IMG/VR virus record: IMGVR_UViG_3300048762_000248
Location: 1-54,567 of that record
Origin: a virus
DNA length: 54,567 nt
Direction: 5' to 3' (one strand)
The notes under the pieces are model-generated. The model saw nothing but the letters and a program-made list of their open reading frames with translations, was not told where the DNA came from and ran no database searches. Positions 6,129 to 33,473 of this stretch are shown here, in pieces. Every line of letters starts with the position of its first letter. Position 1 is the first letter of the stretch. A program made the translations under genes and the position numbers.

Positions 6129-6566
6129 TTATTCACCCATACCATTGTTAAAATCCGGTTCCGGTGTCCCGTCCCAACCTTCGGCATCGGCGTAGCACGA
6201 TTCACATGCAAAGGATTGCTTTTTCTTTTTTGTGGTGACCGGGCAAGTATTGTTGTCGTAGCCTCTATCATCGCCATATTTGCAGCCATGAATTACGCAG
6301 CAGTGCTCTGTGTGAACGTCTTTTTCCGAATCCGGGCCGGGAGTGAACATGCGAACCGGAAGAGCGATACTTTTGATGACTTCCAAATCATGTCGTGAAA
6401 GCGCTAACGATTGAACAGTGCCAAGAGGATTCCTATAAAGGATGGCGCTGCCATCGGGCATCAGGCGCATGACGCTCCATGGACCGATTTCAATAAGCTT
6501 TTCGCCGCCTGAGTTGTGGACCATCGTCTGGCGCATATCAGATAAAACATGTTCCTTGAGTGTCAT
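6129..6566 (-). CDS. Cys-rich hypothetical protein
   Basis: 145-aa ORF with HCCVIHGCKYG and CESCY Cys clusters. Confidence 0.4.
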   Translation of the reverse strand: MTLKEHVLSDMRQTMVHNSGGEKLIEIGPWSVMRLMPDGSAILYRNPLGTVQSLALSRHDLEVIKSIALPVRMFTPGPDSEKDVHTEHCCVIHGCKYGDDRGYDNNTCPVTTKKKKQSFACESCYADAEGWDGTPEPDFNNGMGE

Positions 6567-6772
6567 GCGGGGAATTCCTTTTCGAGTTTAGCGACTCTTT
6601 CGTACACCACAACACGAAAGCAGCAAAGGGCTTGAACTCTGGCGGTTTCGCTGCTCATTCCCAAGTTTATCAACGATGTACAGATGGTATCGACCTCTTC
6701 TTTTTGGGAGTCGGTCATGGTGTAGATCGTCTGCCAAGCGATGTACTCTTCGTGCGTAAGCGTCTTCATCAA
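6563..6772 (-). CDS. hypothetical protein
   Basis: 69-aa ORF whose stop overlaps downstream start (coupled). Confidence 0.35.
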   Translation of the reverse strand: MMKTLTHEEYIAWQTIYTMTDSQKEEVDTICTSLINLGMSSETARVQALCCFRVVVYERVAKLEKEFPA

Positions 6773-7070
6773 TTTTTAGGATAGCACGGTTGATGTATCA
6801 ATGTCAAGCACTAAATATTTGACGCTTTCATCGATTCATGATAAAAATGAAAGCAGAGTGATGGACTCGTGGTTGGCCGTTTCGTGGTTCATCGCTGTTT
6901 GGATTTTAGAAACGTCCACGCCAGTTCATCGGCTTTTTATGGGTGTTCTAATGTTGCCGGATGAAATGGTGCTTACCAACAGGGAAGATTAGGAGCATAC
7001 CATATATGCTTTGAAAAAGTTTCTCAAATATTTGAGAAAAGTTAAAATTGATGCTTGTTTAAAAATGAAT

Positions 7071-7117
7071 AGAGCCGAAACCTCCTTCGCTACCGGGTTT
7101 CGGCTCTTTGAATTTTG
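7071..7117 (+). terminator. rho-independent terminator
   Basis: AGAGCCGAAACC-loop-GGTTTCGGCTCT followed by TTTGAATTTTG. Confidence 0.55.
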
Positions 7118-7136
7118 TGCCTAAATATTGGTATGA
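7108..7136 (+). promoter_or_regulatory. sigma70-like promoter TTGAAT-18-TATGAT
   Basis: immediately upstream of AAGGAAGGG RBS and ATG 7159. Confidence 0.35.
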
Positions 7137-7158
7137 TCAAGTGTCAAGGAAGGGTATT

Positions 7159-7815
7159 ATGAACATAGATGCAAAGACATATCGACTACCAGATAATAAA
7201 ATTTTTAAAGATACTTATGAGAAAACGCTTATTATTTTACACTTCACTGCTGGATCTACAGTTGAAGGAGCTTTCAACGGTTGGATGCAACAGAGCATTC
7301 AAATCGGCACACCCTATATAATCGATACGGATGGCACAATTTATCAAATATTTGATGATAAATTTTGGGCCTACAACTTGGGCTGCACCGGACCAAAGGC
7401 TCAAAATCACAAACACGATAAGCGCAGTGTAGCAATCGAGACCGTCAACATGGGTCCGTTGAAACTGATAGGTGACATGCTTTGCTCCTGGCCGAACAAC
7501 TACAAGCAAAAATTTTGCATGTTGAGTGAGACGGACAGATATGTCAAAGCAACTTATCGTGGATTTGATTACTTCGCTGCATTCCCGGAGGTTCAGAAAG
7601 TAGCCATTGTTGAATTAGTAAAGAAGATTTCAAATGATTTCAACATTCCAATTGTGTTGCCGCCTGCTGAAAAATTGACTGTGTTCGATATGGATTTCTA
7701 TGATACTTGGAAAGGTGTGGCGTCACATCAAAATATGAGAAGTGATAAAACCGATGCGGGACCTGCATTTCCTTGGGAACTTCTTGAAAATAAAGAAATT
7801 ACAAATATCACCTAA
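7159..7815 (+). CDS. N-acetylmuramoyl-L-alanine amidase (Amidase_2/PGRP, T7-lysozyme-like) candidate endolysin
   Basis: LIILHFTAGS..., VAIETVNMGP and HQNMRSDKTDAGPAFPW resemble the three conserved blocks of Amidase_2; ATG at 7159 preferred over TTG 7108. Confidence 0.55.
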   Translation: MNIDAKTYRLPDNKIFKDTYEKTLIILHFTAGSTVEGAFNGWMQQSIQIGTPYIIDTDGTIYQIFDDKFWAYNLGCTGPKAQNHKHDKRSVAIETVNMGPLKLIGDMLCSWPNNYKQKFCMLSETDRYVKATYRGFDYFAAFPEVQKVAIVELVKKISNDFNIPIVLPPAEKLTVFDMDFYDTWKGVASHQNMRSDKTDAGPAFPWELLENKEITNIT

Positions 7816-7831
7816 ACAAAACCGACGCCTT

Positions 7832-7839
7832 GTATAAAT
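7832..7839 (+). promoter_or_regulatory. TATAAATA (T4 late-promoter-like box)
   Basis: exact TATAAATA 6 nt before ATG 7846. Confidence 0.3.
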
Positions 7840-7845
7840 ACTTGC

Positions 7846-8586
7846 ATGAAAGAAACAAGCAAAATTTATTATTGTTACAAGGCGACGAATAAACACAATG
7901 GGAAAGTTTACATTGGGTTTGCCGCCGATCCACATACAAGATGGCGTGATCACAAATATATTGCTGAAAAAGGCAAGGGTTATATTTTTCATGCTGCCAT
8001 TCGAAAGCATGGTTGGGATGCTTTTGAATTTGAAGTGATATGTGGTGGTAAAGATAAACGAATAATGTTGGAGCATGTTGAACCGGCTCTTATTGATCAA
8101 TATCAAAGTCTGGTATCTCAAAATGGGTATAACATATCTCGTGGCGGCGAACGAATGCATTTTGTAAAGGGTGATGAAAAAGCCCGAGGGTTGGCTATTT
8201 CACGAGCAAAGAAAGGCCGACCAAATGGACTAAAAGGGAAACAGTTTACAGAAGAACATCGACGCCATATGTCTGAAGGTAAAAAAGGTATTGTGTTTTC
8301 AGATACACATATACAAAATCTTTCGTTGTCGCATAAAGGACAAGTACCTTGGTGTAAAGGAAAACATCTTTCGGAAGAAACAAGAAAAAAGATTGGGCAA
8401 AGCTCGATTGGTGTACCAAGAGCGGCACAACGATGGATGGTTACTTATCCAGACGGACATATTGAAGAAATATTTAACATGGCTGTATTTTGTAGACAAC
8501 ATGGATTGAATAGAGGAAATATGTCAACTGTTGCCAAAGGCAAAGTGCCGCACCACAAAGGTTATACATGCCAAAAGGTTCTTTAA
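7846..8586 (+). CDS. GIY-YIG homing endonuclease with NUMOD3-like repeats
   Basis: IYYCYKATNKHNGKVYIGFAADPHTRWRDH GIY-YIG core, R/E catalytic region, then repeated S.E.R.K.S...KG DNA-binding motifs. Confidence 0.8.
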   Translation: MKETSKIYYCYKATNKHNGKVYIGFAADPHTRWRDHKYIAEKGKGYIFHAAIRKHGWDAFEFEVICGGKDKRIMLEHVEPALIDQYQSLVSQNGYNISRGGERMHFVKGDEKARGLAISRAKKGRPNGLKGKQFTEEHRRHMSEGKKGIVFSDTHIQNLSLSHKGQVPWCKGKHLSEETRKKIGQSSIGVPRAAQRWMVTYPDGHIEEIFNMAVFCRQHGLNRGNMSTVAKGKVPHHKGYTCQKVL

Positions 8587-8735
8587 TCTTTATGGTCTCG
8601 CCAACGAGGAAGGCGGCAAAGACCGCAACAATATTTTTTCGGCTGGAATTTGCCATCTTTTCTTTTTTTCAATCCATCCCAGGCAACGGATTTCGATCCA
8701 CATCTTGAACAGGGTTTTTAAACATTATTTCTCCT

Positions 8736-8972
8736 CTAAAGCGTCACGCAGCCAGCGTTCGGCGTCAAGTTCATCCGATTGTTGTTTTGATAATCCGGTG
8801 TGACCATTTCGATGTTGCCAATGCGCTCTGTAGCGCCTGAATCTCGATACATTGCACACCGTCGCCATTTCTCATCACAGCCTTTCATGACGGAAAAAAG
8901 ATACTCTCCATCGTCAGTGTAAAGGTCAACACGGTCTTTGATTGTGAGTTTCATAGTTCGTCTGCTTTCCAA
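8736..8972 (-). CDS. hypothetical protein
   Basis: 78-aa ORF. Confidence 0.3.
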   Translation of the reverse strand: MESRRTMKLTIKDRVDLYTDDGEYLFSVMKGCDEKWRRCAMYRDSGATERIGNIEMVTPDYQNNNRMNLTPNAGCVTL

Positions 8973-9226
8973 GTGAGCAATCCTTTTGCGTCAAGTGCGG
9001 AAGCAATGGAATTATATTCGCCCGCTGCGCCACTCAATTTCAAAATCCATAATGGAAGCCCGTCATCTATGTCGTTCGGCGGCAATTTTCCAGTTGGAAC
9101 TACAAGAAACTTATGTTCGCCATGGTACAGCCGGGACCACAGTTCGTATTCGCCACGAAGGTATATTGCGGTCGCTGCACTCACGAGCATTTTTTCCCAC
9201 TGTGTTGTTGTGTCCATTTTACTCAT
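8951..9226 (-). CDS. hypothetical protein
   Basis: start placed at ATG 9226 which forms an ATGA overlap with the stop of the upstream PEP-CTERM gene. Confidence 0.3.
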   Translation of the reverse strand: MSKMDTTTQWEKMLVSAATAIYLRGEYELWSRLYHGEHKFLVVPTGKLPPNDIDDGLPLWILKLSGAAGEYNSIASALDAKGLLTWKADEL

Positions 9227-10461
9227 GGTTTCGATCCTTTTTTCTTTTTCAGAATTACAAGTATAAGCCCTGCGCCAAGTAACCAAATTGAATTCGGTTC
9301 GGGTGTAATTGTTGGCGGTGTTGGTGGCGTTATGTCGCAACACAATGGCGGTGGCGGAAGTTCACAGCACGGCGGTGTCACGGGTGGCGTCACAGGTGGC
9401 GTTGGTGGTGCTGGCGGCACAGGTGGCGTTGGTGGCACTGGTGGCGGCACAGGTGGCGTTGGTGGCACTGGCGGCGTCACAGGTGGCGTTGGTGGTGCTG
9501 GCGGCACAGGTGGCGTTGGTGGCACTGGTGGCGTCACAGGTGGCGTTGGTGGCACTGGTGGCGTCACAGGTGGCGTTGGTGGTGCTGGCGGCGTTACAGG
9601 TGGCGTCACAGGTGGCACTGGTGGTGTTGGTGGCGTTGGTGGCGTTGGTGGCACTGGTGGCATTGGTGGTACTGGTGGAGTCACAGGTGGCGGTGTCGTC
9701 GGTGTCACTGGACCAATTGGCGGAAATGGAACGAACGGAGGTATCGGATTGACAATGAACGGTGGCCCAACTGGTAACATTAGTAACGGAGGAAACGACC
9801 AAATCGGACCAGGACCAGGACCAATACTGCCCGTTAAGACAATAAACGGAGAAAATATGTCAGGTTGTAATGATCCAGGTGTTTGAGATGGCACCATTTC
9901 AATCGGAACCGGAATACCGGGAGGCGATACGTCAACGGTTTCCGTTGGAGGAAGATCAAACTCTTGTTCGGTTGGTTCATTTGGCTGAGTTGGCTCTTCA
10001 GGTGTTTTGGAAACACGATTGCCGCAACGAGCACGCACGGTATTTCTTCCATCGGATAAAAGTTGCTCACCAGCTTTGACTAGAAGTAATCTTTTTGTCC
10101 AGAATACCTTGTCACCGATACGATACGAGATGTAAGCCTTGGTGTCTTCTTTATTGGCGAAGGGCTTCAATTGCCGAATATTAATTCCCGCATAATGCGC
10201 CCGGACAACCGGATCTGAAACTTTCTGCGATGCGTCTTTGGCACTGTGGACTCCACCGGGTACAATAGAGTATGGATAGATCTTTGGTGAAACCGGATCG
10301 GTCATTGAAGTAGTCTTAGTTGCCCATAAAATCTTTTGAGACGCTTCGTGCTGCGGAGCGCACAGAAAAACAACGGCTAACGAAACAATCGGTATTGCAG
10401 TCAGCGCAAAAATCCTTAGCAGATTTTTGTGCCAATGCGTTCTGTGTTTTCGGCGCACCAT
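9223..10461 (-). CDS. PEP-CTERM-anchored secreted protein with long (PTPPV)n proline/threonine repeat
   Basis: N-terminal signal/anchor (LLRIFALTAIPIVSLAVVFLCA), globular region, about 110-aa TPPVPP repeat, C-terminus TPEPNSIWLLGAGLILVILKKKKGSKP (PEP + hydrophobic helix + basic tail). Confidence 0.6.
   Translation of the reverse strand: MVRRKHRTHWHKNLLRIFALTAIPIVSLAVVFLCAPQHEASQKILWATKTTSMTDPVSPKIYPYSIVPGGVHSAKDASQKVSDPVVRAHYAGINIRQLKPFANKEDTKAYISYRIGDKVFWTKRLLLVKAGEQLLSDGRNTVRARCGNRVSKTPEEPTQPNEPTEQEFDLPPTETVDVSPPGIPVPIEMVPSQTPGSLQPDIFSPFIVLTGSIGPGPGPIWSFPPLLMLPVGPPFIVNPIPPFVPFPPIGPVTPTTPPPVTPPVPPMPPVPPTPPTPPTPPVPPVTPPVTPPAPPTPPVTPPVPPTPPVTPPVPPTPPVPPAPPTPPVTPPVPPTPPVPPPVPPTPPVPPAPPTPPVTPPVTPPCCELPPPPLCCDITPPTPPTITPEPNSIWLLGAGLILVILKKKKGSKP
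9375..9710. repeat. tandem 30-nt (and shorter) GGTGGCGTCACAGGTGGCGTTGGTGGCACT-type repeats
   Basis: many near-identical 30-nt units visible directly; encode the TPPVPPTPPV repeat on the minus strand. Confidence 0.7.
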
Positions 10462-10466
10462 GATAT

Positions 10467-11003
10467 TTACTTCTTCGCAATCTGAGTAGTTGGAACCTTT
10501 GTGAAACCGGGTATTGGCACTTCTTCACAGGTCTTATCATTGCCGTCGTCGCCAATGGAAACCTTGAAGCAGCGAACTTCGGGCCGCTTTGTCTTCGGAT
10601 CGATTTTGCCGCAATCGACGGTGTAGCGGTATTCAATGTCCCACGGATCGGACATCATGATGCCAACAGAGATGAACTCCAGACGATTCTTGCGTGGGAC
10701 AGTGATGCTTTTATAACCCTCTGTAAAGTGTTTGTGGAGCTTGCCATCCGGCGATTGAAACATGTAATCGGTGGCAAACTCTTCCGCCAAATAGACTACA
10801 AACTTCGCTGCCAAATATGACGAATCGTAGAGGCGACTGTCCTTCAGCTTTTTGCAGAGAGTGATGAAATGCCAGAGGTCTCGACCATTACCAGAAGGGT
10901 AACCATCTGAATGCCTGTAGGCAATGGCTCCAACATATGCTTTACCAGTTTTTGGATCGATGTTGCTGGAGTCGATAAAATGCGTTGTAGATCGTGTGCT
11001 CAT
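10467..11003 (-). CDS. hypothetical protein
   Basis: 178-aa ORF immediately upstream of and co-directional with the PT-repeat PEP-CTERM gene. Confidence 0.45.
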   Translation of the reverse strand: MSTRSTTHFIDSSNIDPKTGKAYVGAIAYRHSDGYPSGNGRDLWHFITLCKKLKDSRLYDSSYLAAKFVVYLAEEFATDYMFQSPDGKLHKHFTEGYKSITVPRKNRLEFISVGIMMSDPWDIEYRYTVDCGKIDPKTKRPEVRCFKVSIGDDGNDKTCEEVPIPGFTKVPTTQIAKK

Positions 11004-11069
11004 AAAACCATGTTAGCACGATACATACATTAATGTCAAGAAGAAGATAAAATGAACAAAAATAAAGAC

Positions 11070-11345
11070 TTACCTACCGAAATTCTTCGTTTTAATCCAT
11101 GCAATCCATTTTTGAACATCCGGGTGAGCCTTCAATTTTTCGATGGTATTGTAATCTCGTTCCAATTCTTTTTCAGTGAACAGGGCGTGCATTTGATCGT
11201 GGCACGGGCGGCAGAGTGGCGTCTTGGTATTGCGTTCTTCGGACGTGGTTTCACGCTTTATTTTTCTATTATGTCGCATCCGTGGGATCAAATGATGTCC
11301 GGTGGTTTTGCATTTCTCTCGTTCACAAAGTTGGCATGTGCTCAT
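11070..11345 (-). CDS. small HNH-like nuclease (tentative)
   Basis: CQLCEREKC...GHHLIPRMRHN...CRPCHDQMH fits C..C...HH...N...C..CH..H; start taken at internal ATG abutting the upstream ORF stop. Confidence 0.4.
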   Translation of the reverse strand: MSTCQLCEREKCKTTGHHLIPRMRHNRKIKRETTSEERNTKTPLCRPCHDQMHALFTEKELERDYNTIEKLKAHPDVQKWIAWIKTKNFGR

Positions 11346-11346
11346 T

Positions 11347-11739
11347 TTATCTTGCTCCACAGTGACAATCGTTTGGAGGCTTGGCACCGTTCTTTTTTCC
11401 ACACCAAGGACAGACCTGACTTTCGGTGGTGCTTCGTACTTTCGGTCTTGCAAGAAACATATCTTTAGATGATGGTGCGATCTTGCAATGCTCGCACCAA
11501 CAATTTCCATCAACAAATGTCAAGGGATAAAAACAACTACAGCAATGGAGAACCATGCCGTTCATGCCGCCTGTCTCTATCATCTGCACTGGCATAACAT
11601 ATTCTACTGGAATATAATTTGTTGGAATGTATGTGCCAGTAAATGTTATTGGTGGATACGAAAATTCAAATTGTGGCGTTGCTTTCGATTCTGGCGCTTC
11701 GGTTCTGCAAAGCTCCAGCATTTCTTCAAGGTCAATCAT
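11347..11739 (-). CDS. Cys-rich hypothetical protein
   Basis: 130-aa ORF with CCSC, CWCEHC, CPWCG, CHCG clusters. Confidence 0.35.
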   Translation of the reverse strand: MIDLEEMLELCRTEAPESKATPQFEFSYPPITFTGTYIPTNYIPVEYVMPVQMIETGGMNGMVLHCCSCFYPLTFVDGNCWCEHCKIAPSSKDMFLARPKVRSTTESQVCPWCGKKNGAKPPNDCHCGAR

Positions 11740-11745
11740 GTGTTA

Positions 11746-12249
11746 CTACATTAGAAATTTCGGTTTTGGTTGTGTATCCAATATTTCTTTGTACAAAATT
11801 TGTTTACCGCTGTCCGTAAGTTTGTTGTAACCAGGATGTTTTGGATGAGAAGTAAACACATTATCTGGCGCAAGATATTCCATATGTCCTTTACGCCGTA
11901 AATTTTCACAATTGATGATAACAAGCGTACTGCTTGCGGCTTCGGAGATTGGATCTGTTGCTTCGAATTCAAGACCAAGTTTGTTGGCAACACGGAACAC
12001 AAGTTCAAAAATAAGATTCCGTGCAATTTCATCACTTTCATGACCGATGACAAGGGTTGCCAATGTATTGAATGCATCATCAGGAAGCAATTGGACAACC
12101 GTCTCCATGATACGTCCAGATTCATTACTACTGATGCGAATCAAGATTTCTCCAATCACTTCCATAACAGCTTTCGCAGCTACTTTACGAAGCTCTTCTG
12201 TTACGGCTGTTATGGTTATTCCAGGAGGTAAATTCATGTTAGTCGGCAC
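11746..12249 (-). CDS. hypothetical protein
   Basis: 167-aa ORF. Confidence 0.4.
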   Translation of the reverse strand: MPTNMNLPPGITITAVTEELRKVAAKAVMEVIGEILIRISSNESGRIMETVVQLLPDDAFNTLATLVIGHESDEIARNLIFELVFRVANKLGLEFEATDPISEAASSTLVIINCENLRRKGHMEYLAPDNVFTSHPKHPGYNKLTDSGKQILYKEILDTQPKPKFLM

Positions 12250-12892
12250 CTAATTTATATAGTTCAAAATCTTCATCTTCCATTTCCATAGAAGTGTCGC
12301 ATCCTGGACATAAAGGAAACCCAAGTTTCAGACTCTTGCGTGAGGCGGTAACTGTGTAATCACCGGCTTTTGCGACTTCGATGAGACGGCAAGATTTATC
12401 ACCATCACGAAATTTGGAACAATGAAGTTTGAAGCTCTTCTTACCAGTTGCTCGTTCTTTTTGAGTCTTTTCCGGGATCTTCAATGGTGAGTTGGGATAG
12501 TCGCCCAATTCTTCGGCCATCTTCTCACAGAAGGCAAGCAATTCGTCACCGGGCATGGCATGAATGGCTTTTCCTTCCAGCCCAACGCTAATCATGGCTT
12601 CTTTGAATTGTGGACCATGCTTGGCTGAATCATCGAGGGCGGAATGAAGTAATTCGTGGGCGAGGACACCAAGTGTTTCGACTGTGCTTTTAATAATAGG
12701 AGAAATGAAAATCTGTCGGCTTCCGTCAGCGCAACATGTAGAACTGAAACATTGTCCAAGTGTTTTTTTAGGATTTGTTGAAGGAAATCCACAAGATACC
12801 TTGATTTCAGGAATATGCAGTTTGTTGCGTTCAAATAGTGGTCTGAATTTTTCGACCGCATTCAATAAATATTTTTCACGTTCTGTTAGCAT
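12239..12892 (-). CDS. HExxH zinc-metallopeptidase-like protein with C-terminal zinc ribbon (SprT/WLM-like, tentative)
   Basis: LAHELLHSAL HExxH motif followed by CSKF...CPGCD ribbon. Confidence 0.45.
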   Translation of the reverse strand: MLTEREKYLLNAVEKFRPLFERNKLHIPEIKVSCGFPSTNPKKTLGQCFSSTCCADGSRQIFISPIIKSTVETLGVLAHELLHSALDDSAKHGPQFKEAMISVGLEGKAIHAMPGDELLAFCEKMAEELGDYPNSPLKIPEKTQKERATGKKSFKLHCSKFRDGDKSCRLIEVAKAGDYTVTASRKSLKLGFPLCPGCDTSMEMEDEDFELYKLGAD

Positions 12893-13099
12893 AATTTCAT
12901 TATATCACAATTTTCGTGCTAAATAGAAACGGCTGCATGTGAATGTCTAGTTCGCATACAGCCTAAACAAAGCACTTTGGAGAGCGCAATGTCTGACGAT
13001 AATTTATCATCGAAATTTTATGAAGGGAAGCCGTGCCGGAAGTGATGTGTCATGTACTCAAAGGAACCAAAATTATTGATTATCGTAAATCTCATAAAA

Positions 13100-13336
13100 T
13101 TATTCAATAGGACACCACTTTGCTTTTTGCGAAGGTGGATTGTTTCTGACATCCGAATTTTCGAGCAAATCTAATAAACCTTGAACGATTATTTTTGACA
13201 TTGGATCGGCGGATGAGTTTTTCAAGACTACCCGAAGTGCCATCACAAAGGCAAAGGCATTGTCACCTCTTATAAACACGCCCGGCCAATCTCCTTCAAA
13301 TTCAAGCACACCAGTTTCGGCTCTTTGTTGTTCCAT
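13100..13336 (-). CDS. hypothetical protein
   Basis: 78-aa ORF. Confidence 0.3.
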   Translation of the reverse strand: MEQQRAETGVLEFEGDWPGVFIRGDNAFAFVMALRVVLKNSSADPMSKIIVQGLLDLLENSDVRNNPPSQKAKWCPIE

Positions 13337-13606
13337 CTAAATACCCCTATGATATTTGGTTATGAAGAAAGTCAAGATTACGCACAGCTTCCCGGCTTCG
13401 ATAAGCTGACGCCAGAGCAACAAAAATACGTTCACGAAGAATACGAACGTGCCTACAATAAATCAAAGCATCTTGGTATAAAAGTTGCAATGGGCAAAGG
13501 TTGTCAAACTGCCAAGGTCGCTTTAGAACAATTCCAAGAAGAGAAAAAGGTGAAGCAGCAACCTACGCCGCCGTCTATTTTTTCTGGTCTGGAGAATTGT
13601 CAGTAA
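13325..13606 (+). CDS. hypothetical protein
   Basis: 93-aa ORF. Confidence 0.35.
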   Translation: MLFHLNTPMIFGYEESQDYAQLPGFDKLTPEQQKYVHEEYERAYNKSKHLGIKVAMGKGCQTAKVALEQFQEEKKVKQQPTPPSIFSGLENCQ

Positions 13607-13747
13607 AACTTCCTTCAACTGTAATTGTCCATGTAGGCGACAGGCTCATCGCATTTTTTATACACACTAACAACTCTTCATCAGTCTCAGCAGTGCATTG
13701 TCCCGCACCGTTTAGTGTAAAATGTGGTCTTATTTTATAGATCATTC

Positions 13748-14518
13748 TCACTGAGCTACCTCATCTTCATCCAAGCCAAACTTTTTGAAATCAAACGGCA
13801 CAGTTTTAGCTTTACCACTTTTGATATCATCGGCCATGCCAGTTAGTTCTTCGATGAATGCTTTGTTCTCTTTCGGTCCACCGTGAAACGAAATGTCGTA
13901 GTAGATGCAATCTAGAAATTCCAATAGTGAACAGGTAATAGTCGCTGGCGGCAGTATGTCATCCATTTTGTTAAAGTTTGAATCAAACTGAATAAGAGGA
14001 TCAATTTTTACTGTCGCATTGACAAGTTCGTTCATTGGTGTGTAAGAGATTCCATAGCTCTGTCCGCTCTTTGCTGTACCACTGAAGTGCCACCAGATGC
14101 CTTCAAAACTCGCAAAGACAAGCCACCAATTTTTGTGAAACTCTCCGAAGGCTTTCACAACCACTTCCACAATGGGATCTTCTTCACCTTCATGCACTGG
14201 AACCAATGTGCAATATTCGTCTAGGACAAATTCGCTGGCTTCAATAAATGGTTCACGTGGAATTTTTGCTGCGGCATGAAATTCATGGATCGGAGCGCAC
14301 CAGGAATAAAGTGCGATGAAATTCATGAGCGGAACATCCGCTTCAACAGCGTTAAAAACATCACCAAGGGTTACGTCGGGTTCAATTTCGACACGGGTGC
14401 GGAGGTTGATGATGTTGCCAGTTGGGTGCGGATTCGGATCGGGAACGTATTCTTGTTTTTCACCATCCCAATCGAATGCAACGAGACCGTTTTTTGTGAA
14501 TCGAATAAAATCTGACAT
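13748..14518 (-). CDS. hypothetical protein
   Basis: 256-aa ORF, Trp/Phe-rich, no motif recognised. Confidence 0.45.
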   Translation of the reverse strand: MSDFIRFTKNGLVAFDWDGEKQEYVPDPNPHPTGNIINLRTRVEIEPDVTLGDVFNAVEADVPLMNFIALYSWCAPIHEFHAAAKIPREPFIEASEFVLDEYCTLVPVHEGEEDPIVEVVVKAFGEFHKNWWLVFASFEGIWWHFSGTAKSGQSYGISYTPMNELVNATVKIDPLIQFDSNFNKMDDILPPATITCSLLEFLDCIYYDISFHGGPKENKAFIEELTGMADDIKSGKAKTVPFDFKKFGLDEDEVAQ

Positions 14519-14877
14519 TTATTTAAGCATACCATATCCAGAAAAAATGTCAAATTGAATTTATATACCTGTTGCGTTCTCGATGAAAGTTTGCTATCCT
14601 AAGCTGTATGGACGTGAAAGTTAAATTCACATTTTGGCGCAATTTTTCTTGGCCGCATCGAGGCGATCTGGTTTGCGTTCATGTGATTGGACCAATGAAT
14701 TTCAAATCGGCTTTCGTTGCGAATTCAAACCACGAACGTTTACAAAGTCAGTTGCCGCTAAACATCCAAGTCAAAATGGAGCTTGACAAAAATGCAGAAT
14801 TGTGCAATGATAGATATTATCGTGGAATATTGTTGTAGCAAAGTGTGATGCCGGGTTCGAGATTGACCCGTAAATAA

Positions 14878-14957
14878 GCGCCGTTCGTCAAGTTTGGTCT
14901 AAGACATCAGGCCGCAACCCTGAAATTTCGGGGGTTCAAATCCCTCACGGCGCTCCA
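14878..14957 (+). tRNA. tRNA, anticodon GCA (Cys) by hand folding, CCA encoded
   Basis: acceptor GCGCCGT/ACGGCGC perfect 7 bp, anticodon stem TCAGG/CCTGA with loop CCGCAAC, T-arm GGGGG-TTCAAAT-CCCTC, ends TCCA; D-arm weak and position 33 is C (atypical); the antisense translation gives the REGFEPP signature in the overlapping ORF. Confidence 0.6.
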
Positions 14958-15648
14958 TCTTCTTTCTTCTACTTAATCTTCCGTTTCCCATATTACGAGA
15001 TCCAAATGTAGATGTTTGCGAGTGACAATTGGGGCAAAGAAATCTTAAATTTTCAAGTCTGTTATTGCGGCAGTTTCCGTCTTTGTGGTCAACTTGCAAT
15101 ATTAATATTTGATGATTCCATTCTGCTCCGACACCACAAGATGAACATGTATAGGAAACTCCAAGAATTATCATTGCTCTTTTTAAATATTTGGAATGTA
15201 CTTCTGCATATTTTTCTAAGATTTTTTCATTTATTCTTACTGTACTTAAATGACATTTAGTGCTGCAATACATTTTTGCCCAAGGGTTAATTGGAAGATT
15301 ACAAACAACACAAAGTTTTTGTTCATTTTTCCGACGATTTGAAAATTTTTCTTTTTGAATTTGACTTTTTGGATTGGCAGCATAATATTTTTTTGATGCG
15401 ATTTCTTTTTGAATTTCGCTCCAATTATTTCGTACACGATGCTTGTTTGAGAAACTGGCAGCGCACGACTGATTACAAAATTTTTTTTGTCTTGTATCGG
15501 CAATTGCATGTTTACCGTCTTTGATTTTAATTATTTGATTACATTGACGACAAATATTTGGATTGGCATAATATTTTTCTAATGCTCGTTGCTTTTGGAG
15601 CGGATTGATTTTCCATGCTCCTAATCGACCAGCTTCGCTATGTGTCAT
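14899..15648 (-). CDS. HNH homing endonuclease
   Basis: VDHKDGNCRNNRLENLRFLCPNCHSQ HNH motif plus N-terminal Cys-rich region; 3' end runs 59 nt antisense through the tRNA. Confidence 0.7.
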   Translation of the reverse strand: MTHSEAGRLGAWKINPLQKQRALEKYYANPNICRQCNQIIKIKDGKHAIADTRQKKFCNQSCAASFSNKHRVRNNWSEIQKEIASKKYYAANPKSQIQKEKFSNRRKNEQKLCVVCNLPINPWAKMYCSTKCHLSTVRINEKILEKYAEVHSKYLKRAMIILGVSYTCSSCGVGAEWNHQILILQVDHKDGNCRNNRLENLRFLCPNCHSQTSTFGSRNMGNGRLSRRKKMERREGFEPPKFQGCGLMS

Positions 15649-15667
15649 ACTTGAAATCCTCTAACGG

Positions 15668-15675
15668 TATTTATA
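15668..15675 (-). promoter_or_regulatory. T4 late-promoter-like TATAAATA box
   Basis: minus-strand TATAAATA, then 19 nt containing GAGGA RBS, then ATG 15648 of the HNH gene. Confidence 0.45.
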
Positions 15676-15681
15676 CACCAT

Positions 15682-16017
15682 TTGTTTCAAGTCCCACACC
15701 ATGCTATAATACTCTTAATGGGCAACCATATCAAAGGTCTGTTGGCAGGCGAAAAGTTCAACGGCAAACACAGCACGGTAATCCCGGACGCTGTAATCGC
15801 CATTGAAGCGGCGAAGGTATGTCAATATGTCAGTAAAATCGCTCTCGGTTTTATTAAGCCAATTCGTCCATCACAACGCCATCTTAAATTCACAAATACG
15901 ACTGGCTGCTTAAAAATGCAAGTCCGTGGTATCAACGCAGTCCAAATCATTTGGGTTTACACTACAGAGCCAGATAAAGTCATAGCAGAAATTACAAAGA
16001 AATGGAACCTACGATGA
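15682..16017 (+). CDS. hypothetical protein
   Basis: 111-aa ORF, TATAAT at 15706 upstream of an internal ATG 15721. Confidence 0.3.
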   Translation: MFQVPHHAIILLMGNHIKGLLAGEKFNGKHSTVIPDAVIAIEAAKVCQYVSKIALGFIKPIRPSQRHLKFTNTTGCLKMQVRGINAVQIIWVYTTEPDKVIAEITKKWNLR

Positions 16018-16041
16018 ATAAAAAAGTTTACATAGTACTTC

Positions 16042-16389
16042 TTGAAGGCGGTGGCGATATCTAGACCAGGAGACATTCGACTGGATTTGTTCAGACGATA
16101 TGGGTCAGCCGGAATGCGTGATGAATCGTCCTGGATTGACCAACTTGTACCGGCTTCGCAAGTGGCGAAGATGAAAGTGGAGCACGCAGAAACCTTTAAA
16201 AAGGGTTGGTGTAGTAATGAAGAATTTGGTGGTCTCGATTTAACCCGTGGTTCTTGGGACAATGACCGTGCCATCGCAGCGTGTCCAGCGGACGGCTACG
16301 ATACCTATTCCAGCGTCAAGGAAGCCCTACAAGCGATTAAGAAGCAGGGCGACGAACTGGAAGATGAATATAATGGATGCATGTACTGA
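16042..16389 (+). CDS. hypothetical acidic protein
   Basis: 115-aa ORF. Confidence 0.35.
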   Translation: MKAVAISRPGDIRLDLFRRYGSAGMRDESSWIDQLVPASQVAKMKVEHAETFKKGWCSNEEFGGLDLTRGSWDNDRAIAACPADGYDTYSSVKEALQAIKKQGDELEDEYNGCMY

Positions 16390-16427
16390 AGGGCTTGAAT
16401 GCCATGTTTGAATTTTTTACGACTAGA

Positions 16428-16706
16428 TCAAGCTGGAGTGTTGGTTTTTCCAGCCCAAAGTGCGTCTCTTTGAGATGCAACGCTTTGATTTGTTGACTTT
16501 TTCCCCGCTTCGCATTGCCAGCACGGAAGGTCGAAAACTTTACTGGTTCCTTTAATGTCGATGTGAACATTTCCAGTTCCACGACACATATTGCATTTTG
16601 GCGTTCTGGGTTTTCTGACTTTCTTTATTGGGTCAGGAACGGGATTTGGTTTTTCGTCGTCTTCCTTGATGAATGCTTTGAAAGTCATGATTGTATTTAC
16701 ATACAC
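16428..16706 (-). CDS. small protein with DnaJ-type CxxCxGxG zinc finger
   Basis: CNMCRGTGNV...CWQCEAG. Confidence 0.4.
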   Translation of the reverse strand: MYVNTIMTFKAFIKEDDEKPNPVPDPIKKVRKPRTPKCNMCRGTGNVHIDIKGTSKVFDLPCWQCEAGKKSTNQSVASQRDALWAGKTNTPA

Positions 16707-16736
16707 AGTGGTTTGGTGATTTTATTTGATTTTATT

Positions 16737-17939
16737 TCACTCATTAACCATTACCTTTTCAAAACGGTATCCACGTTTTGTTGATCGGTTTTGTTTCATT
16801 GCAATTCTTGCTGTTGCTTCATCCATTTTATGAAATTCACAGAATTCTTTGAGATTAACAATACTTTGTTCTTCTCCTGTTGGAAGTGTCACAGTATAAG
16901 TAAATTTACGAGTGGCTTGACTAATTTTTTGTTTTGTCTCTTTTGATAAGTGAGTATTGGTTTTTTGGTTAGCCAATTCTTGACGCCGCTTTGGTGTCCA
17001 TGATGCGCTAACTGATGCTGCTAGTTTTTGTTTGGTTTCTTTAGAAACGCTTTTTCCATGTATGTCCGTTGCAAATCGGCATTTAAATCCTTTGTGAGAT
17101 TGTCGTTGTCCTATTGCGGTCATACGAAGTGTGCCTTGACTCAAATTGTGGTCTCGTGCAAATGCTGAAAGATTAGTGACTGTTAGTTCTTCTCCGTTTG
17201 GAGTGGTCACAATGTATGTTATACTTCGATGCTCTGCCGTCCATGTATTTGGCTTTCCGGTGTTCCAAGAAGGTAATCCTTTTTTAGCAACTGACATTTT
17301 TTGTCGGGTTTCTTCGGACATGTTACGAAGTCGATCTAACATTTTTTGTCTATTATCCGTCCATTGGTCTATTGACATTTGACGACATTGTTCTCGCTGC
17401 TCGTCGGTTACCATTGCTTTTGTGGTTTCAGACATTTTGCGTTTGGCTTCGACTGTGTGGTGTTTGCCTTTCATTGGAGCAATACCGCCGTTAGTGTAAT
17501 ATGCTCTAACACCTTCGCTTATTGTATGACGAACTTCAGGATCGGACATTCTCTCTTTTGTATGTTCTGAGATGAGTTTCTTTTCTTCTTTGGTTTTAGG
17601 GCGGAAACGACCATCTTTAATTCCATAAGCGGAATTCCAATTGGCACCTGTTAATTCTCGTTTGAGATTATAACCATGTTCAGTTACATGACTCTTGTGT
17701 TGTCGAATCAATTCAGGTTCGACATATTTTAACATGTCGAGTTTATTTTTTCCACAACAGATTATTTCAAATGAAAAATTTTCAACACCATGTTTCCGAA
17801 TTGCTTCATGGACCGCATAACCCCGCTTATGAGCGGCATCACGGCGGTGTTCCCGCCAGCGTTGTTGTGGATCGGTAGCAAATCCCACATACTTTTTCCC
17901 ATTAACATGATTAGTGATAAGATAGCAAGAATAGACCAT
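16737..17939 (-). CDS. GIY-YIG homing endonuclease with NUMOD3-like repeats
   Basis: VYSCYLITNHVNGKKYVGFATDPQQRWREH GIY-YIG core and at least five S.ET.QK.S.A.KG repeats. Confidence 0.8.
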   Translation of the reverse strand: MVYSCYLITNHVNGKKYVGFATDPQQRWREHRRDAAHKRGYAVHEAIRKHGVENFSFEIICCGKNKLDMLKYVEPELIRQHKSHVTEHGYNLKRELTGANWNSAYGIKDGRFRPKTKEEKKLISEHTKERMSDPEVRHTISEGVRAYYTNGGIAPMKGKHHTVEAKRKMSETTKAMVTDEQREQCRQMSIDQWTDNRQKMLDRLRNMSEETRQKMSVAKKGLPSWNTGKPNTWTAEHRSITYIVTTPNGEELTVTNLSAFARDHNLSQGTLRMTAIGQRQSHKGFKCRFATDIHGKSVSKETKQKLAASVSASWTPKRRQELANQKTNTHLSKETKQKISQATRKFTYTVTLPTGEEQSIVNLKEFCEFHKMDEATARIAMKQNRSTKRGYRFEKVMVNE

Positions 17940-19126
17940 GACTCTATATATGATGGCATGGGTTTGTAATTTGTCAAGAATCCAAATAATTCATGCAACT
18001 TAAAGATAATAGGATGTAAAAACGGTAAGAGCCACCAAAATGGAACGAAAGCATATCCTTGTTGCACACGAATTTTTGTCATAAGCTCTAACTCCATGAA
18101 ACTAAGGGAGATATCAGTGCAAACGCTAGGCGCACCTTGTAATCTTTGTGAAGGTCTAAATGCAGCGAAGTGTCCAACTGGAGTGTAATTTACAGAAACG
18201 TTTGTACAGGCGCATGTGCTGATCTTGTTCAAAAAATCATTTGGTTTTCCATTTGAATAATATTGGATGTCAAACTCAGCCGGATAAATCCAGAAACGAC
18301 CAGCCCAACCTTGCATGATTTCTGGTGCAGCGTAGAATTTGAATGCTCGAATAATGTTGTCTACATTAACAGCTTCGTCTTCGCTCTCTGGAGTAAACCG
18401 AAAATTAAAAGTGAATGTCCGAAATGTAATTCCATTGAAGATTACTTCTTGGTGATTGTTGATGACTAATCGACTAGCGAGACTAGCCGCATCTTTTAAA
18501 TTCATATCAGTGAAGCTATTTGCCCAATCACCAACATGCTTAATTGCAGACATACCGCCTGATGTGAATAAGTCTTTTAAAGATCCGCCCTTGATTAAAT
18601 CAACAGTTTCTTTTGCCATGCCAAGTTCTGTCTCTGACCAATTTGCTGCGTAAGAAGCTGTAATTTCTGGCGGCATATACAAAACAATGGTGGTTGCCAC
18701 ACGATTGGTTGGTCTGTGCATTTGTGCTATGACACTTTGATTTGCTGAGTTTCCATTTTTGCCGTTTGTTGAATTTCCATTCGGATCTCCATTTGGATCT
18801 TTCGGTGTTCCGTCCGCATTCCATTCATTTGTCATAGTGTTTATATTAATGGCGGATTGATTCCATTCTGGACCAAGTTGTGACATTGGTCTATTCTGCG
18901 AAGGGCCTACAAACGAACCATTTGGACCAACACCTGGACCGCTGGTAGTATATTGTGTATTATAAGATTCGTTAATATGAAAAACAATGTAATGATCTTT
19001 TCCTGCGACGGATGCGCCTAAGTCCAATGGGTATATAAAATTGGCATAAGCATACTTATTAGTGTCAAGGTCGCCTAATGGTTGGCTTATACCTTGAGTT
19101 TGACCGGGCGTCTGTGTGTCTGGCAT
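17762..19126 (-). CDS. putative virion structural protein (family not recognised)
   Basis: 454-aa ORF with Asn/Gly/Thr-rich N-terminal region, beta-rich composition; last 59 codons overlap the HEG start and are unusually hydrophobic. Confidence 0.45.
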   Translation of the reverse strand: MPDTQTPGQTQGISQPLGDLDTNKYAYANFIYPLDLGASVAGKDHYIVFHINESYNTQYTTSGPGVGPNGSFVGPSQNRPMSQLGPEWNQSAININTMTNEWNADGTPKDPNGDPNGNSTNGKNGNSANQSVIAQMHRPTNRVATTIVLYMPPEITASYAANWSETELGMAKETVDLIKGGSLKDLFTSGGMSAIKHVGDWANSFTDMNLKDAASLASRLVINNHQEVIFNGITFRTFTFNFRFTPESEDEAVNVDNIIRAFKFYAAPEIMQGWAGRFWIYPAEFDIQYYSNGKPNDFLNKISTCACTNVSVNYTPVGHFAAFRPSQRLQGAPSVCTDISLSFMELELMTKIRVQQGYAFVPFWWLLPFLHPIIFKLHELFGFLTNYKPMPSYIESWSILAILSLIMLMGKSMWDLLPIHNNAGGNTAVMPLISGVMRSMKQFGNMVLKIFHLK

Positions 19127-19650
19127 CGTACTTATTATTTAGTTCCCTAAATACAAATGTGAATACTCAAGAGCAAGTTCAAGAAATCTCCGAAAAGAAA
19201 AATCGTCCACGCTGGCATGGAACCAGGAAGGGATTTTTTAATCCAAAAAATCCGGCTAAGTATGAAGGTAGAGTGGATAAAATCATATATCGCTCAAAAC
19301 TAGAATTGAGGATTATGAAGTACTTGGACAATCACCCTGATGTTTTGAAATGGTCGTCGGAAGAGTTAACCATTCCTTATATCAAGCCAACTGATGGCAA
19401 GATTCATCGATATTTTGTTGATTTCAAGGCCACGCTTAAACACAAAGATGGAATAATTCGAACTACTTTACTTGAGTCGAAATGGTCAACTGCTACGGTA
19501 CCACCCAAGGTTCCAAAGAAGCGGACTAAGCGCTATATGCGGGAATGCTACGATTGGATTATAAATTCTGCAAAATGGGAAGCAGCACAAAAGCTTTGCA
19601 AAAAGAACGATTGGGACTGGATGATCCTTACTGAGAAACACGCACTCTAA
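19078..19650 (+). CDS. PD-(D/E)xK restriction-endonuclease-fold protein (tentative)
   Basis: YFVDFKAT...RTTLLESK fits D-x(n)-E-x-K; sits between divergent structural genes. Confidence 0.4.
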   Translation: MVGLYLEFDRASVCLASYLLFSSLNTNVNTQEQVQEISEKKNRPRWHGTRKGFFNPKNPAKYEGRVDKIIYRSKLELRIMKYLDNHPDVLKWSSEELTIPYIKPTDGKIHRYFVDFKATLKHKDGIIRTTLLESKWSTATVPPKVPKKRTKRYMRECYDWIINSAKWEAAQKLCKKNDWDWMILTEKHAL

Positions 19651-21023
19651 TGCCAATACGAAATTTAGATGAATCGGAAATAAAACGAATTGCCGCCAAA
19701 TATATTCATGATGTCGAATCTAAGACTATTCCCAACATTAGAGAATTGATTGAAAACGCTATCAGAAAGGCATCGCCGGAGCGCCAATTAGATCAACAAG
19801 ATGTTCATACTGTTATTTCTCAACTGGTTAAAAAATCTAAAATTGATGACCAAGTTATAATTCAAGAAGCCAAAAAACAAGTCGATCATGCAGCCTTAGA
19901 AGACTTGAAACATCAGATTCAAAGCAACGCCAGACAACTCAAACATAAAATCAGTGATGATGAAGTAGATCTTATCATTAGAACATCAAAACTTACTCCA
20001 AATAAGTCAATTCTACAAATCCGAAAGGCGGTTCAACAATATTTTTCATCGGGCAGGCCGCTTGAATACATTCCACCAACCGAATTACAAAAGATGATTC
20101 GGGACGAATTACAGAAGGTTGGCCCGGTTGATGAACGTGATGTGAGGGCGATCTTAGAAAAATACATAGAAGGTGCTGACCCGGACAAGCCTCTTGATGT
20201 TGCTGAAATGCAGCGTATCATTAAGGGGCAAATGGAAGGCAGAAAAGCTAGTCCACAAACTATTGTAAAATCGGAACAGAAGGGGCAAGGACCGGCAAAA
20301 TCTCAAACCAGCCGGATTGCAACACCAAAAGAAAAAGAAGAACAAAAACTTGGAAAAGATACAAAAAATGATGTTAAAGCAGGTGCATGGGTACCACCGA
20401 AAGACCCAACAAATCTCACATTCTTTGAAAAAATTCGTTTTAAATTGCGTCGATATGGAATCAAATCGTTATCTCGTGGCGCACGCAATTGGCTCACCGA
20501 TGAAGTGACAACACTGAGTAAAAGCCAAATAAACCGAAAGAAATTATTGCAAGAAGGCGAGACCGTTGCGGAAGCCATGATCGGCAAGATGTTTATGTAC
20601 TTTTACAATGCGAAGACTAAGGATGTTTTGCCATATTGGGATAAATTTCCCTTAGTGATCTGCATAGAGTTATACAATGATGGTTGGCTTGGGTTAAACT
20701 TACATTATTTGGATTATCGTCTTCGGATGAAGTTGTTTGATAAACTACTCCAATATGCGAATGATAAATCATTAGACAAGATTACAAAATTGAGATTATC
20801 TTATGGTTTGTTGAAAAGTGTAGCCAAGTTTCCAGAAGTGCGGCCTACAATTAAACGGTATTTGGCGTCATATGTAAAGAGTGAGTTATTGCCTATAGAC
20901 GCTATCGATTGGGAAATCGCACTTTTTCTTCCTGTTTCTCAATTTCAGAAAGAACGACGGGAAACTGTTTGGGAGAAAAGCAGAGCCAAAATTGAATATT
21001 TGAAGCGGTTCAGAAGAAAATAA
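19650..21023 (+). CDS. hypothetical highly charged Lys-rich protein (virion module)
   Basis: 457-aa ORF, stop/start overlap with upstream gene. Confidence 0.45.
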   Translation: MPIRNLDESEIKRIAAKYIHDVESKTIPNIRELIENAIRKASPERQLDQQDVHTVISQLVKKSKIDDQVIIQEAKKQVDHAALEDLKHQIQSNARQLKHKISDDEVDLIIRTSKLTPNKSILQIRKAVQQYFSSGRPLEYIPPTELQKMIRDELQKVGPVDERDVRAILEKYIEGADPDKPLDVAEMQRIIKGQMEGRKASPQTIVKSEQKGQGPAKSQTSRIATPKEKEEQKLGKDTKNDVKAGAWVPPKDPTNLTFFEKIRFKLRRYGIKSLSRGARNWLTDEVTTLSKSQINRKKLLQEGETVAEAMIGKMFMYFYNAKTKDVLPYWDKFPLVICIELYNDGWLGLNLHYLDYRLRMKLFDKLLQYANDKSLDKITKLRLSYGLLKSVAKFPEVRPTIKRYLASYVKSELLPIDAIDWEIALFLPVSQFQKERRETVWEKSRAKIEYLKRFRRK

Positions 21024-21114
21024 TTATGAAAGGTCCAAAACCATTAACAACCGAGGAATTCATTAGACGTTCTAAATTGATTCATGGGTTTCAATGCTTA
21101 TTGAGAGGTTCAAC

Positions 21115-21879
21115 ATGTCATTAAATGTCAACCAATTTCTAGCACAGGTGTCCGCTGCCCAAGGATTTGCAAAACAAAATCGATATGATGTGTTGATTCC
21201 GGCAGAACTGCTTGGCAAAAATTCAACTGCAATTTTCAAAGCTATTACAGTAGCGTACAAAACACTGGACAAACCCATCAATACATCGGACTGGATGACG
21301 GATTTTTTTGATGCCGATTTAAATGCTCAGGCGCTTCGACTTACTGCTTTCTGTGAAAAAAGCGAATTACCGTCGTATCAATTTCAACTTGAGACTGTTC
21401 GTCATTATGGGCCAACGTTCAAGATTCCACATATGCCGGAATATCAAGATACCACTATGACATTCATGTGCGGATCGGACATGTTGGAACGCTATTTCTT
21501 CGATGCTTGGATGTATTTGGTTATGGACCCAATCAGCAACGACTTTAATTACAAAAATGAGTATGCCGCAGAAATTGAAATTTTGCAATACAAGGAATCT
21601 GCGGAATATCAAAATGTGGATCTTACAGCAGCCGGGGCCAACTACACAGTTTATTGTAACTACTATACCAAATTGATTGATGCTTTCCCAATTGCCATCA
21701 ATGTTCAAGATATTGGTTATGACACGAACAACAGTATTCAGAAAGTTTCGGTCACATTTTCATATAAGTTCGCCGTTCCATATCTTGGAAAGGGGTCTAC
21801 TACAGGCACTTCGATTCGTGGCAATCAAGCTGCTTTTCAGGATACTGTTTCACTCAGGCCACCGCCGCCACCACTGTAA
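21115..21879 (+). CDS. putative tail tube-like structural protein (low confidence)
   Basis: GAGAGG RBS before ATG 21115; beta-rich, position before chaperone-like and giant tail protein genes; weak resemblance of termini to myovirus tube proteins. Confidence 0.4.
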   Translation: MSLNVNQFLAQVSAAQGFAKQNRYDVLIPAELLGKNSTAIFKAITVAYKTLDKPINTSDWMTDFFDADLNAQALRLTAFCEKSELPSYQFQLETVRHYGPTFKIPHMPEYQDTTMTFMCGSDMLERYFFDAWMYLVMDPISNDFNYKNEYAAEIEILQYKESAEYQNVDLTAAGANYTVYCNYYTKLIDAFPIAINVQDIGYDTNNSIQKVSVTFSYKFAVPYLGKGSTTGTSIRGNQAAFQDTVSLRPPPPPL

Positions 21880-21916
21880 TACATAACCACGTTCTTTATA
21901 CTGACTATATAAAGAC

Positions 21917-32895: not shown

Positions 32896-32972
32896 TGGAG
32901 CCGCCAGCCAGGATTGAACTGGCATCTTATCAGTACCGATGATAAATCCTACCACATTTGAACGATAGCGGC
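32896..32972 (-). tRNA. tRNA (anticodon GGU, Thr, if 7-nt loop TCGGTAC), CCA encoded
   Basis: acceptor GCCGCTA/TGGCGGC (one G-U), D-stem GTTC/GGAT, anticodon stem TATCA/TGATA, T-arm GCCAG-TTCAATC-CTGGC, TCCA end; position 33 is C so anticodon assignment is tentative. Confidence 0.6.
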
Positions 32973-33047
32973 TGGAGCCGATTCTGGGATTTGAACCCAA
33001 ATCTCATCTTTACGAGAGATGTATCTTACCATTGGAACGAAATCGGC
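32973..33047 (-). tRNA. tRNA-Thr (anticodon CGU), CCA encoded
   Basis: acceptor GCCGATT/AATCGGC perfect, anticodon stem CATCT/AGATG with loop CTCGTAA (U33, CGT, A37), T-arm TTGGG-TTCAAAT-CCCAG, discriminator U + CCA; its CCA abuts the 5' end of the next tRNA with no spacer. Confidence 0.7.
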
Positions 33048-33460: not shown

Positions 33461-33473
33461 GTGGTTCACACAA

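Follow-up and report, generated by a model that had tools for sequence, protein, structure and literature searches.

The 54,567-nt stretch of viral DNA analysed here (the window; positions 1 to 54,567 of the IMG/VR record IMGVR_UViG_3300048762_000248) encoded on its minus strand a PEP-CTERM protein of 412 amino acids (aa) with an ATG start (9223..10461), delimited by its open reading frame (ORF) and by homology. From the N- to the C-terminus, this protein, hereafter the target, displayed a basic N-terminus (MVRRKHRTHWHK) with a hydrophobic helix (aa 1-35, 10357..10461), a conserved globular domain (the N-domain; aa 60-172, 9946..10284), a disordered linker with a hydrophobic Pro-rich stretch (FSPFIVLTGSIGPGPGPIWSFPPLLMLPVGPPFIVNPIPPFVPFPPIG; aa 173-250, 9712..9945), a Pro/Thr/Val stalk (aa 251-364, 9370..9711), a Cys segment with two Cys doublets (CCELPPPPLCCD; aa 365-376, 9334..9369) and a PEP-CTERM sorting signal (aa 386-408, 9238..9306), all on the same minus strand. 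Comparison of sequences showed the target to belong to a large unnamed bacterial family of PEP-CTERM proteins, of which it is the only member found on viral sequence so far. The exact protein was not on record, and of about 15 billion proteins the most similar one shared 54% identity with it (50-54% across both cluster searches).

The sorting signal (tail sequence TPEPNSIWLLGAGLILVILKKKKGSKP) was composed of a TPEP motif, a transmembrane (TM) helix and a KKKK run, with 4 residues remaining after the end of the model match at aa 408 of 412. Scored in isolation, the 37-aa tail obtained 27.0 bits with TIGR02595 (cut-off 16) and 21.3 bits with PF07589 (cut-off 20.7), which bears out the PEP-CTERM ending claimed by an earlier reading of the DNA letters (hereafter the sequence-only reading). 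AlphaFold2, run with a 46-sequence alignment, placed a C-terminal helix at aa 391-408, and NF033554 (floc_PepA) matched the target in the tail only. Among PEP-CTERM proteins, 87% have fewer than 10 residues after the signal (median 3) and 97% have an N-terminal signal peptide (Haft 2006, PMC1569441).

The N-domain, delimited by the family alignment and the AlphaFold model, extended from a YPYSIVPGG motif to an RxRCGNRVS motif and was modelled as two short helices and seven strands, with a predicted local distance difference test score (pLDDT) of about 98. Preceded by a helix at aa 8-33, this folded domain (aa 60-172) agreed with the order of signal/anchor and globular domain given by the sequence-only reading. 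All nine family-invariant residues (D83, R114, W121, G131, E132, D137, R143, C146 and N148) were kept in the phage protein, as was the YPYSIVPGG motif, itself nearly invariant in the family; H89 was nearly invariant as well. No Pfam, NCBIfam or PHROG model covered the N-domain, Pfam and NCBIfam scans of the first 250 aa gave no domain either, a PDB sequence profile search returned nothing at E<=1, and structure searches found no neighbours, BFVD included.

A search of 5.8 billion clusters retrieved 45 relatives of the target (E 1e-13 to 5e-31), and phmmer against 1.84 billion representatives gave 2292 matches at E<=1e-3, of which 1911 at E<=1e-10, with E values down to 4e-33. In the common family layout, an anchor in the membrane or a lipobox comes first, followed by a single domain and by a linker of low complexity that is rich in Gly, Pro or Ser/Thr, and the PEP-CTERM tail closes the protein. 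PEP-CTERM-like tails were found in 159 of the 194 fetched members and in at least 63 of the 80 genome-encoded members, while those lacking the tail were mostly PEN variants or truncations. Scored as whole proteins, 21 of 46 family members passed TIGR02595. The target had the same domain order, all the invariant residues and a low-complexity linker, but differed from the rest of the family by its identity of at most 54%, by the most Pro-rich linker (61% Pro in the stalk vs 0.43 at most, and 0.23 as the median, when whole linkers of the family are taken) and by two CC doublets instead of one pair.

Exactly two linker Cys occurred in 22 of 148 family members, as a C...C pair or a CC doublet, with two doublets in the phage protein; an even number of linker Cys is a trait that the target shares with about 15% of members. 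Lipobox-like N-termini were displayed by about 17% of family members, some of them canonical. Judged from these sequences, the even linker Cys and the lipobox-like N-termini suggest sub-types within the unnamed family. Across the family (P0001-P0194), the linker Cys came in even numbers, the two Cys of the C...C pair being separated by about 25 residues, with a Lys/Gly-rich loop between them.

At least 547 family loci were counted in a scan using one genome per species. The best 80 of these loci were mostly from Acidobacteriota (Bryobacterales, Terriglobia, Acidoferrales), with Massilia and Telluria in addition; Massilia members are named in NCBI just 'PEP-CTERM sorting domain-containing protein' (e.g. 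WP_027864122.1, Massilia alkalitolerans). The closest metagenomic homologs sat among housekeeping genes, and no family-wide operon partner appeared in the bacterial loci compared. The neighbourhood was kept only within Acidobacteriaceae (AMIN-like, TadE/TadG-like, S41 and M61 peptidase genes and a PEP-CTERM gene), and these conserved neighbours were dropped as a sign of functional linkage, their conservation being confined to that group. At nine Acidobacteriaceae loci, the divergent neighbour of the target homolog was a PEP-CTERM gene weakly homologous to a 255-aa protein of the window (25-28% identity, E down to 1e-6; L059 6569-7012, L022 2451-2957, L060 6830-7354). The phage thus holds relatives of both Acidobacteriaceae neighbours, about 33 kb apart.

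The hydropathy scan that, with the AlphaFold helix, delimited the N-terminal hydrophobic segment displayed no TM segment between this helix and the tail. The N-terminal segment ended in VVFLC, which does not correspond to a canonical lipobox ([LVI][ASTVI][GAS]C), and a lipoprotein reading was ruled out by the Leu at position -1 (V-F-L-C). On the structure model, the segment would act as a signal anchor, or else be a signal peptide that is long or left uncleaved. Past the N-domain, AlphaFold2 predicted disorder over aa 173-260 (pLDDT 36-54), where the hydrophobic Pro-rich stretch resembled those of Bryobacter-type homologs (P0068, L003). The Cys segment at aa 365-376 was modelled at low confidence and lies where the sequence-only reading had put a Cys-rich segment, before the PEP-CTERM tail.

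The stalk was made of 114 aa belonging to P, T, V, A and M only (P70 T21 V19 A3 M1; 61% Pro) and organized in 34 modules of [T/V/A/M]PP or VTPP, with super-periods of 10 aa and 29 aa. The underlying DNA is an imperfect tandem array, with repeat periods of 30, 57 and 87 nt. Tandem Repeats Finder (TRF) gave 10.9 copies at period 30 nt (79% matches, 9% indels) and scored period 87 nt best (3.6 copies, 85% matches); exact self-matches reached 48 nt at a lag of 30 nt and 61 nt at a lag of 87 nt. The "perfect 30-nt DNA repeats" of the sequence-only reading did not hold against these values, and copies compared in register were 60-84% identical. Its 110-aa (TPPVPP)n stalk was right as to the long Pro/Thr run and wrong as to a strict TPPVPP unit. 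As the repeats are imperfect, the recent expansion that had been proposed is weakly indicated, while some recent local duplication within them is plausible. AlphaFold2 gave the stalk no regular secondary structure (pLDDT 67-78), and the model fits an extended or polyproline-II (PPII)-like chain.

On homology grounds, the minus-strand ORF 9223..10461 is the coding frame, as it is fixed at both ends, by the N-domain with its 2292 relatives and by a tail common to those relatives. An ATG-started, Gly-rich ORF of 257 aa was also present antisense to the target (9113..9886, plus strand). That this ORF should be the true gene and the minus ORF an artefact is barely credible: the minus frame joins, without a stop, the domain to the tail carried by its relatives, and a Gly-rich ORF is expected there as the mirror of CCN-rich (Pro) codons. 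It was not regarded as a gene, in line with the sequence-only reading, which had taken the minus-strand frame as the expressed one. Within the target, ACG accounted for 20 of 41 Thr codons, vs 15% in the window's other ORFs, and this gene accounts for about 12% of the window's ACG codons. A phage tRNA-Thr(CGU) (32973-33047) reads ACG, the codon favoured in the target gene.

The target was embedded in a tight string of genes in the same direction, with no terminator-like or promoter-like sites inside it in the scan. Upstream, a 178-aa gene (10467..11003, minus strand) ended 5 nt before the target start codon and was assigned to the phage backbone by its 62-69% identical homolog at the syntenic place in the IMG/VR contig L083; its product had no match in Pfam, NCBIfam or PHROG. 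Downstream, the stop codon of the target and the start codon of a 91-aa ORF shared an ATGA (9223..9226; ORF at 8951..9226, minus strand, MSKMDTTTQWEK...), and this ORF was in turn coupled by a second ATGA (8954..8951) to a 72-aa ORF (8736..8954, minus strand), both overlaps being read directly from the DNA. The co-directional upstream gene and the ATGA coupling at 9226..9223 had been described in the sequence-only reading and were found as described. The 91-aa ORF had no homolog beside bacterial family members and none in L083. Just upstream of the 178-aa gene, a consensus match to a sigma-70-like promoter (TTGACA-18-TAACAT with a TG extension; 11010..11039, minus strand) is a candidate start of the transcription unit, and only a lead, since the promoter scan of the region gave no more sites than shuffled sequence.

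By its gene content, the window is from a T4-like myovirus. The gp32 protein matched PF08804 at 1e-45 and was 46-48% identical to cyanomyovirus gp32, PhoH was present, and PHROG matches encompassed a DNA end protector (gp2-like), a baseplate tail-tube cap (gp48-like), a tail tube, a baseplate hub and a helicase loader (gp59-like). The contig L083 was syntenic with window positions 6129..22651, with proteins 28-85% identical. Between the Amidase_2 gene (window 7108-7815; L083 15283-15786), conserved in this comparison, and the 178-aa gene, a slot of variable content was displayed (window 6800-10461 vs L083 12800-16200). In the window, it held the target, the two small coupled ORFs and a GIY-YIG endonuclease; in L083, different cargo including an exported 263-aa protein with a signal peptide (13473-14264). 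As L083 keeps the flanking genes with other cargo, the target represents accessory cargo in a variable slot. Homing-endonuclease-like genes, two of them GIY-YIG/NUMOD3 and at least two HNH, were found at 7846-8586 (plus), 16737-17939 (minus), 11070-11516 (minus) and 14899-15648 (minus), some of them flanking this accessory island.

In a neighbour-joining tree built with no bootstrap, the phage domain grouped with P0047 inside a Bryobacterales clade, and the Bryobacter homolog had the same style of hydrophobic Pro-rich linker as the phage protein. The source of the capture was probably an acidobacterium of Bryobacterales type. The N-domain had a third-codon-position GC content (GC3) of 0.39, within the range of phage genes (0.28-0.54), while donor-type genomes have a GC content of 0.52-0.69. 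No homologs of the flanking phage ORFs were found next to bacterial family members, so that the capture did not include the genes that now flank the target. Phage-like GC3, identity of at most 54%, an intact ORF and intact invariant residues together point to an old capture kept by selection.

These observations bear on whether the target is a neutral hitch-hiker, i.e., a host gene picked up by chance and useless to the phage. Its place in a variable island with flanking homing endonucleases, and its absence from L083 and all other phage data searched, would suit such an origin. A chance passenger is nonetheless improbable, given a composition ameliorated to phage values, an ORF and every invariant residue left intact despite an old capture (best identity 54%), translational coupling to phage genes, and three further PEP-CTERM genes in the window, which make a theme rather than an accident. 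A modest preference goes to the target being a functional moron-type accessory gene, captured long ago from bacteria, whose product is an exosortase substrate displayed on the infected cell.

A six-frame pattern scan for PEP-CTERM tails, with each tail then scored alone on TIGR02595, detected exactly four in the 54.5-kb window, each in an ORF with a hydrophobic N-terminus; the count of the sequence-only reading, which had called the target the fourth such protein, was therefore right. The three others, all on the minus strand, lay in a row with unrelated mature parts: a 214-aa gene (42196..42840; isolated tail 16.4 bits vs a cut-off of 16, borderline), a 194-aa gene (42915..43499; TIGR02595 19.9 bits for the full protein and 24.1 for the tail, PF07589 26.0 vs 20.7) and the 255-aa gene (43594..44361; isolated tail 17.5 bits, cut-off 16). 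A small RelA/SpoT-HD-like gene (41567-42148, minus strand) stood beside this row.

Relatives of the target were absent from GenBank phages (blastn, tblastn) and PHROGs, as were those of the window's three further PEP-CTERM genes. In IMG/VR, no target relative turned up with the family alignment, and scans with the 255- and 194-aa genes found no relatives either. Neither the target nor any PEP-CTERM gene was present in 650 kb of phage loci related via the 178-aa gene (IMG/VR and metagenomes; distant relatives). A literature search found no report of phage-encoded exosortase substrates; a PEP-CTERM domain is mentioned in a Dehalococcoides mobile element (one preprint).

Four PEP-CTERM genes in one window, with no exosortase gene, could also be explained by a decoy function, whereby the four substrates would flood the host exosortase, block host sorting, loosen the matrix of exopolysaccharide (EPS) or floc and free the progeny; according to the literature, floc integrity needs PEP-CTERM proteins. 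This is unlikely, in that a tail alone would suffice for a decoy, yet the nine invariant N-domain residues were kept and the domain was modelled at pLDDT about 98, which argues for selection on the domain itself. The unrelated N-terminal parts of the four proteins also weigh against a decoy.

A further alternative is a virion protein, with the target as a fibre or decoration protein bearing a Pro/Thr stalk. Pro/Thr-rich spacers exist in some phage fibres, and baseplate genes were located about 7 kb away; but with a TM helix at either end and a sorting signal, the protein would be directed to the envelope rather than to cytoplasmic assembly, the relatives are all chromosomal bacterial genes, and no PHROG or BFVD match was obtained. 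A structural role is very improbable on this evidence.

For an exosortase substrate displayed on the infected cell, the following mechanism can be envisaged. During infection, Sec would insert the protein with both termini inside (N-in and C-in), a topology deduced from the basic residues that each end carries. The host exosortase would recognize the PEP-TM-KKKK signal, cut at or near PEP and hand the protein to the envelope or exopolysaccharide layer. This cleavage and transfer follows the model of Haft 2006 (PMC1569441), and Nostoc PEP-CTERM proteins offer experimental support. The Cys doublets may form disulfide cross-links. With the rise of 3.1 Å per residue of a PPII helix, the 114-aa Pro/Thr/Val stretch would act as a stiff PPII-like spacer of about 35 nm, possibly glycosylated, and would thereby hold the conserved domain away from the attachment point. 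The target and the three further PEP-CTERM proteins of the phage would jointly re-model the infected cell's surface or matrix, the purpose being most likely receptor masking against superinfection, or keeping the cell embedded in a floc or biofilm. For the phage as a whole, it is conceivable, at somewhat less than an even chance, that the exosortase pathway of the host is exploited by a lytic T4-like phage through four host-like PEP-CTERM proteins rebuilding the surface/EPS matrix of the infected cell; the host would probably be an acidobacterium or another soil or freshwater bacterium with an exosortase.

Several observations weigh against this interpretation. The PEP-CTERM models passed on the isolated tail only: the full-length target failed them, with no Pfam match and only a 12.9-bit tail match in NCBIfam, a failure of the hidden Markov models (HMMs) presumed to be owed to the Pro-rich composition. 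The target has 6 Cys among its 412 residues (1.5%), a higher share than the 0.4% usual in PEP-CTERM proteins (PMC1569441). The N-domain was without a recognizable fold relative in the structure searches, no exosortase-type multi-TM ORF was found in the 54.5-kb window, and the benefit to the phage is a matter of inference. The permuted transfer-messenger RNA (tmRNA) of the window, if it reflects the host, does not obviously fit an acidobacterial one, this type being known from alpha- and some beta-proteobacteria and from cyanobacteria. Finally, the N-terminal hydrophobic stretch was long (about 21-26 residues) and without an obvious AXA site, so that the mature protein may stay tethered to the inner membrane and never reach the surface.

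The latter possibility would make the target an unprocessed periplasmic or inner-membrane-tethered effector, in which Cys146 and His89 might form an enzyme site acting on wall or EPS precursors. Apart from the long N-terminal helix with no clear cleavage site, such a role would accord with the lipobox-like N-termini of about 17% of members, by which membrane tethering recurs in the family, with the invariance of C146 and near-invariance of H89, and with the Amidase_2 gene in the same island. It was judged unlikely, because the PEP-CTERM tail is conserved across the family, which indicates that processing is probably part of the function, and because the domain had no likeness to peptidase or transglutaminase folds.

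Compared with known substrates of the PEP-CTERM/exosortase (EpsH, Xrt) system (PMC1569441), the target displayed the three-part C-terminal signal, a putative N-terminal export signal with no TM segment between, a low-complexity, Thr-rich mature part, and the company of more than two such genes per genome piece. The four tails above the TIGR02595 cut-off (27.0, 24.1, 17.5 and 16.4 bits) reach Haft's gene-number threshold for a working system. The target departs from these substrates in being encoded by a lytic-type T4-like phage whose 54.5 kb of sequence showed no exosortase gene, in its higher Cys content, in an N-terminal segment more anchor-like than a cleavable signal peptide, and in the failure of the whole protein on the HMMs. 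It resembles the PEP-CTERM proteins of flocs and biofilms (PepA of Zoogloea and Aquincola, PMC9850573; CrtB-dependent Nostoc proteins, PMC12188702) by the presumed exosortase route to the interface of the cell surface and EPS. The mature parts had no sequence similarity.

Among phage moron proteins of the surface or of superinfection exclusion, lambda Bor/Lom and T4 Imm/Sp are examples, for which exosortase-type sorting is not known. The target is like them an accessory gene in a variable slot, with a product predicted in the envelope of the infected cell; it has no homology to them. Proline-rich spacers are also known from the (EP)n/(KP)n region of TonB and from the Pro/Thr stalks of sortase-anchored LPXTG proteins. 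As in those, a long XPP-type repeat, predicted to be extended, stands in the target between the attachment point and the functional domain, with the difference that its repeat unit is [TVA]PP / VTPP.

PEP-CTERM/exosortase sorting is widespread in environmental Gram-negatives and tied to EPS, flocs and biofilms, with few substrates of known function. PEP-CTERM proteins themselves were already known; the interest of the target lies in its viral context and its uncharacterised domain. Four PEP-CTERM genes on one phage sequence imply viral manipulation of the infected-cell surface or matrix via the exosortase pathway, relevant for phage ecology in soils, sludge flocs and biofilms (superinfection exclusion, aggregate retention, matrix turnover). 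If true, this would be the first instance of exosortase-dependent protein sorting put to use by a virus, and would open a first functional approach to a surface-domain family of more than 2000 clusters that is still uncharacterised. A Pfam or NCBIfam model is warranted for this large unnamed family, whose fold is predicted with confidence but has no match and whose invariant residues include a Cys. Its members come mainly from Acidobacteriota, and very few phages and surface proteins of that phylum have been characterised.

Three tRNAs and the permuted tmRNA were encoded in the window. The tRNA-Cys(GCA) (14878-14957, plus strand) overlapped the 3' end of the opposite-strand HNH ORF at 14899-15648 (minus). 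The permuted, two-piece tmRNA adjoined tRNA-Thr(CGU) and tRNA-Thr(GGU) (32896-33470, minus strand), matched Rfam RF04321 (56 bits over 33184-33437) and had ANYNSYAMAA as its tag peptide in ARAGORN; being phage-borne, it may hold a clue to the host. A 1211-aa protein (23249-26884, plus strand), encoded where GC and AT skew are unusually high (24-26 kb), had a C-terminal phage-lysozyme domain at aa 998-1120; it probably represents a gp5-like lysozyme fusion of the baseplate or tail. Other genes, all on the minus strand, coded for a Cas4-like nuclease (46196-46870), an RlaP-family nucleotidyltransferase (35265-36269) and an 803-aa AAA ATPase (52122-54533).

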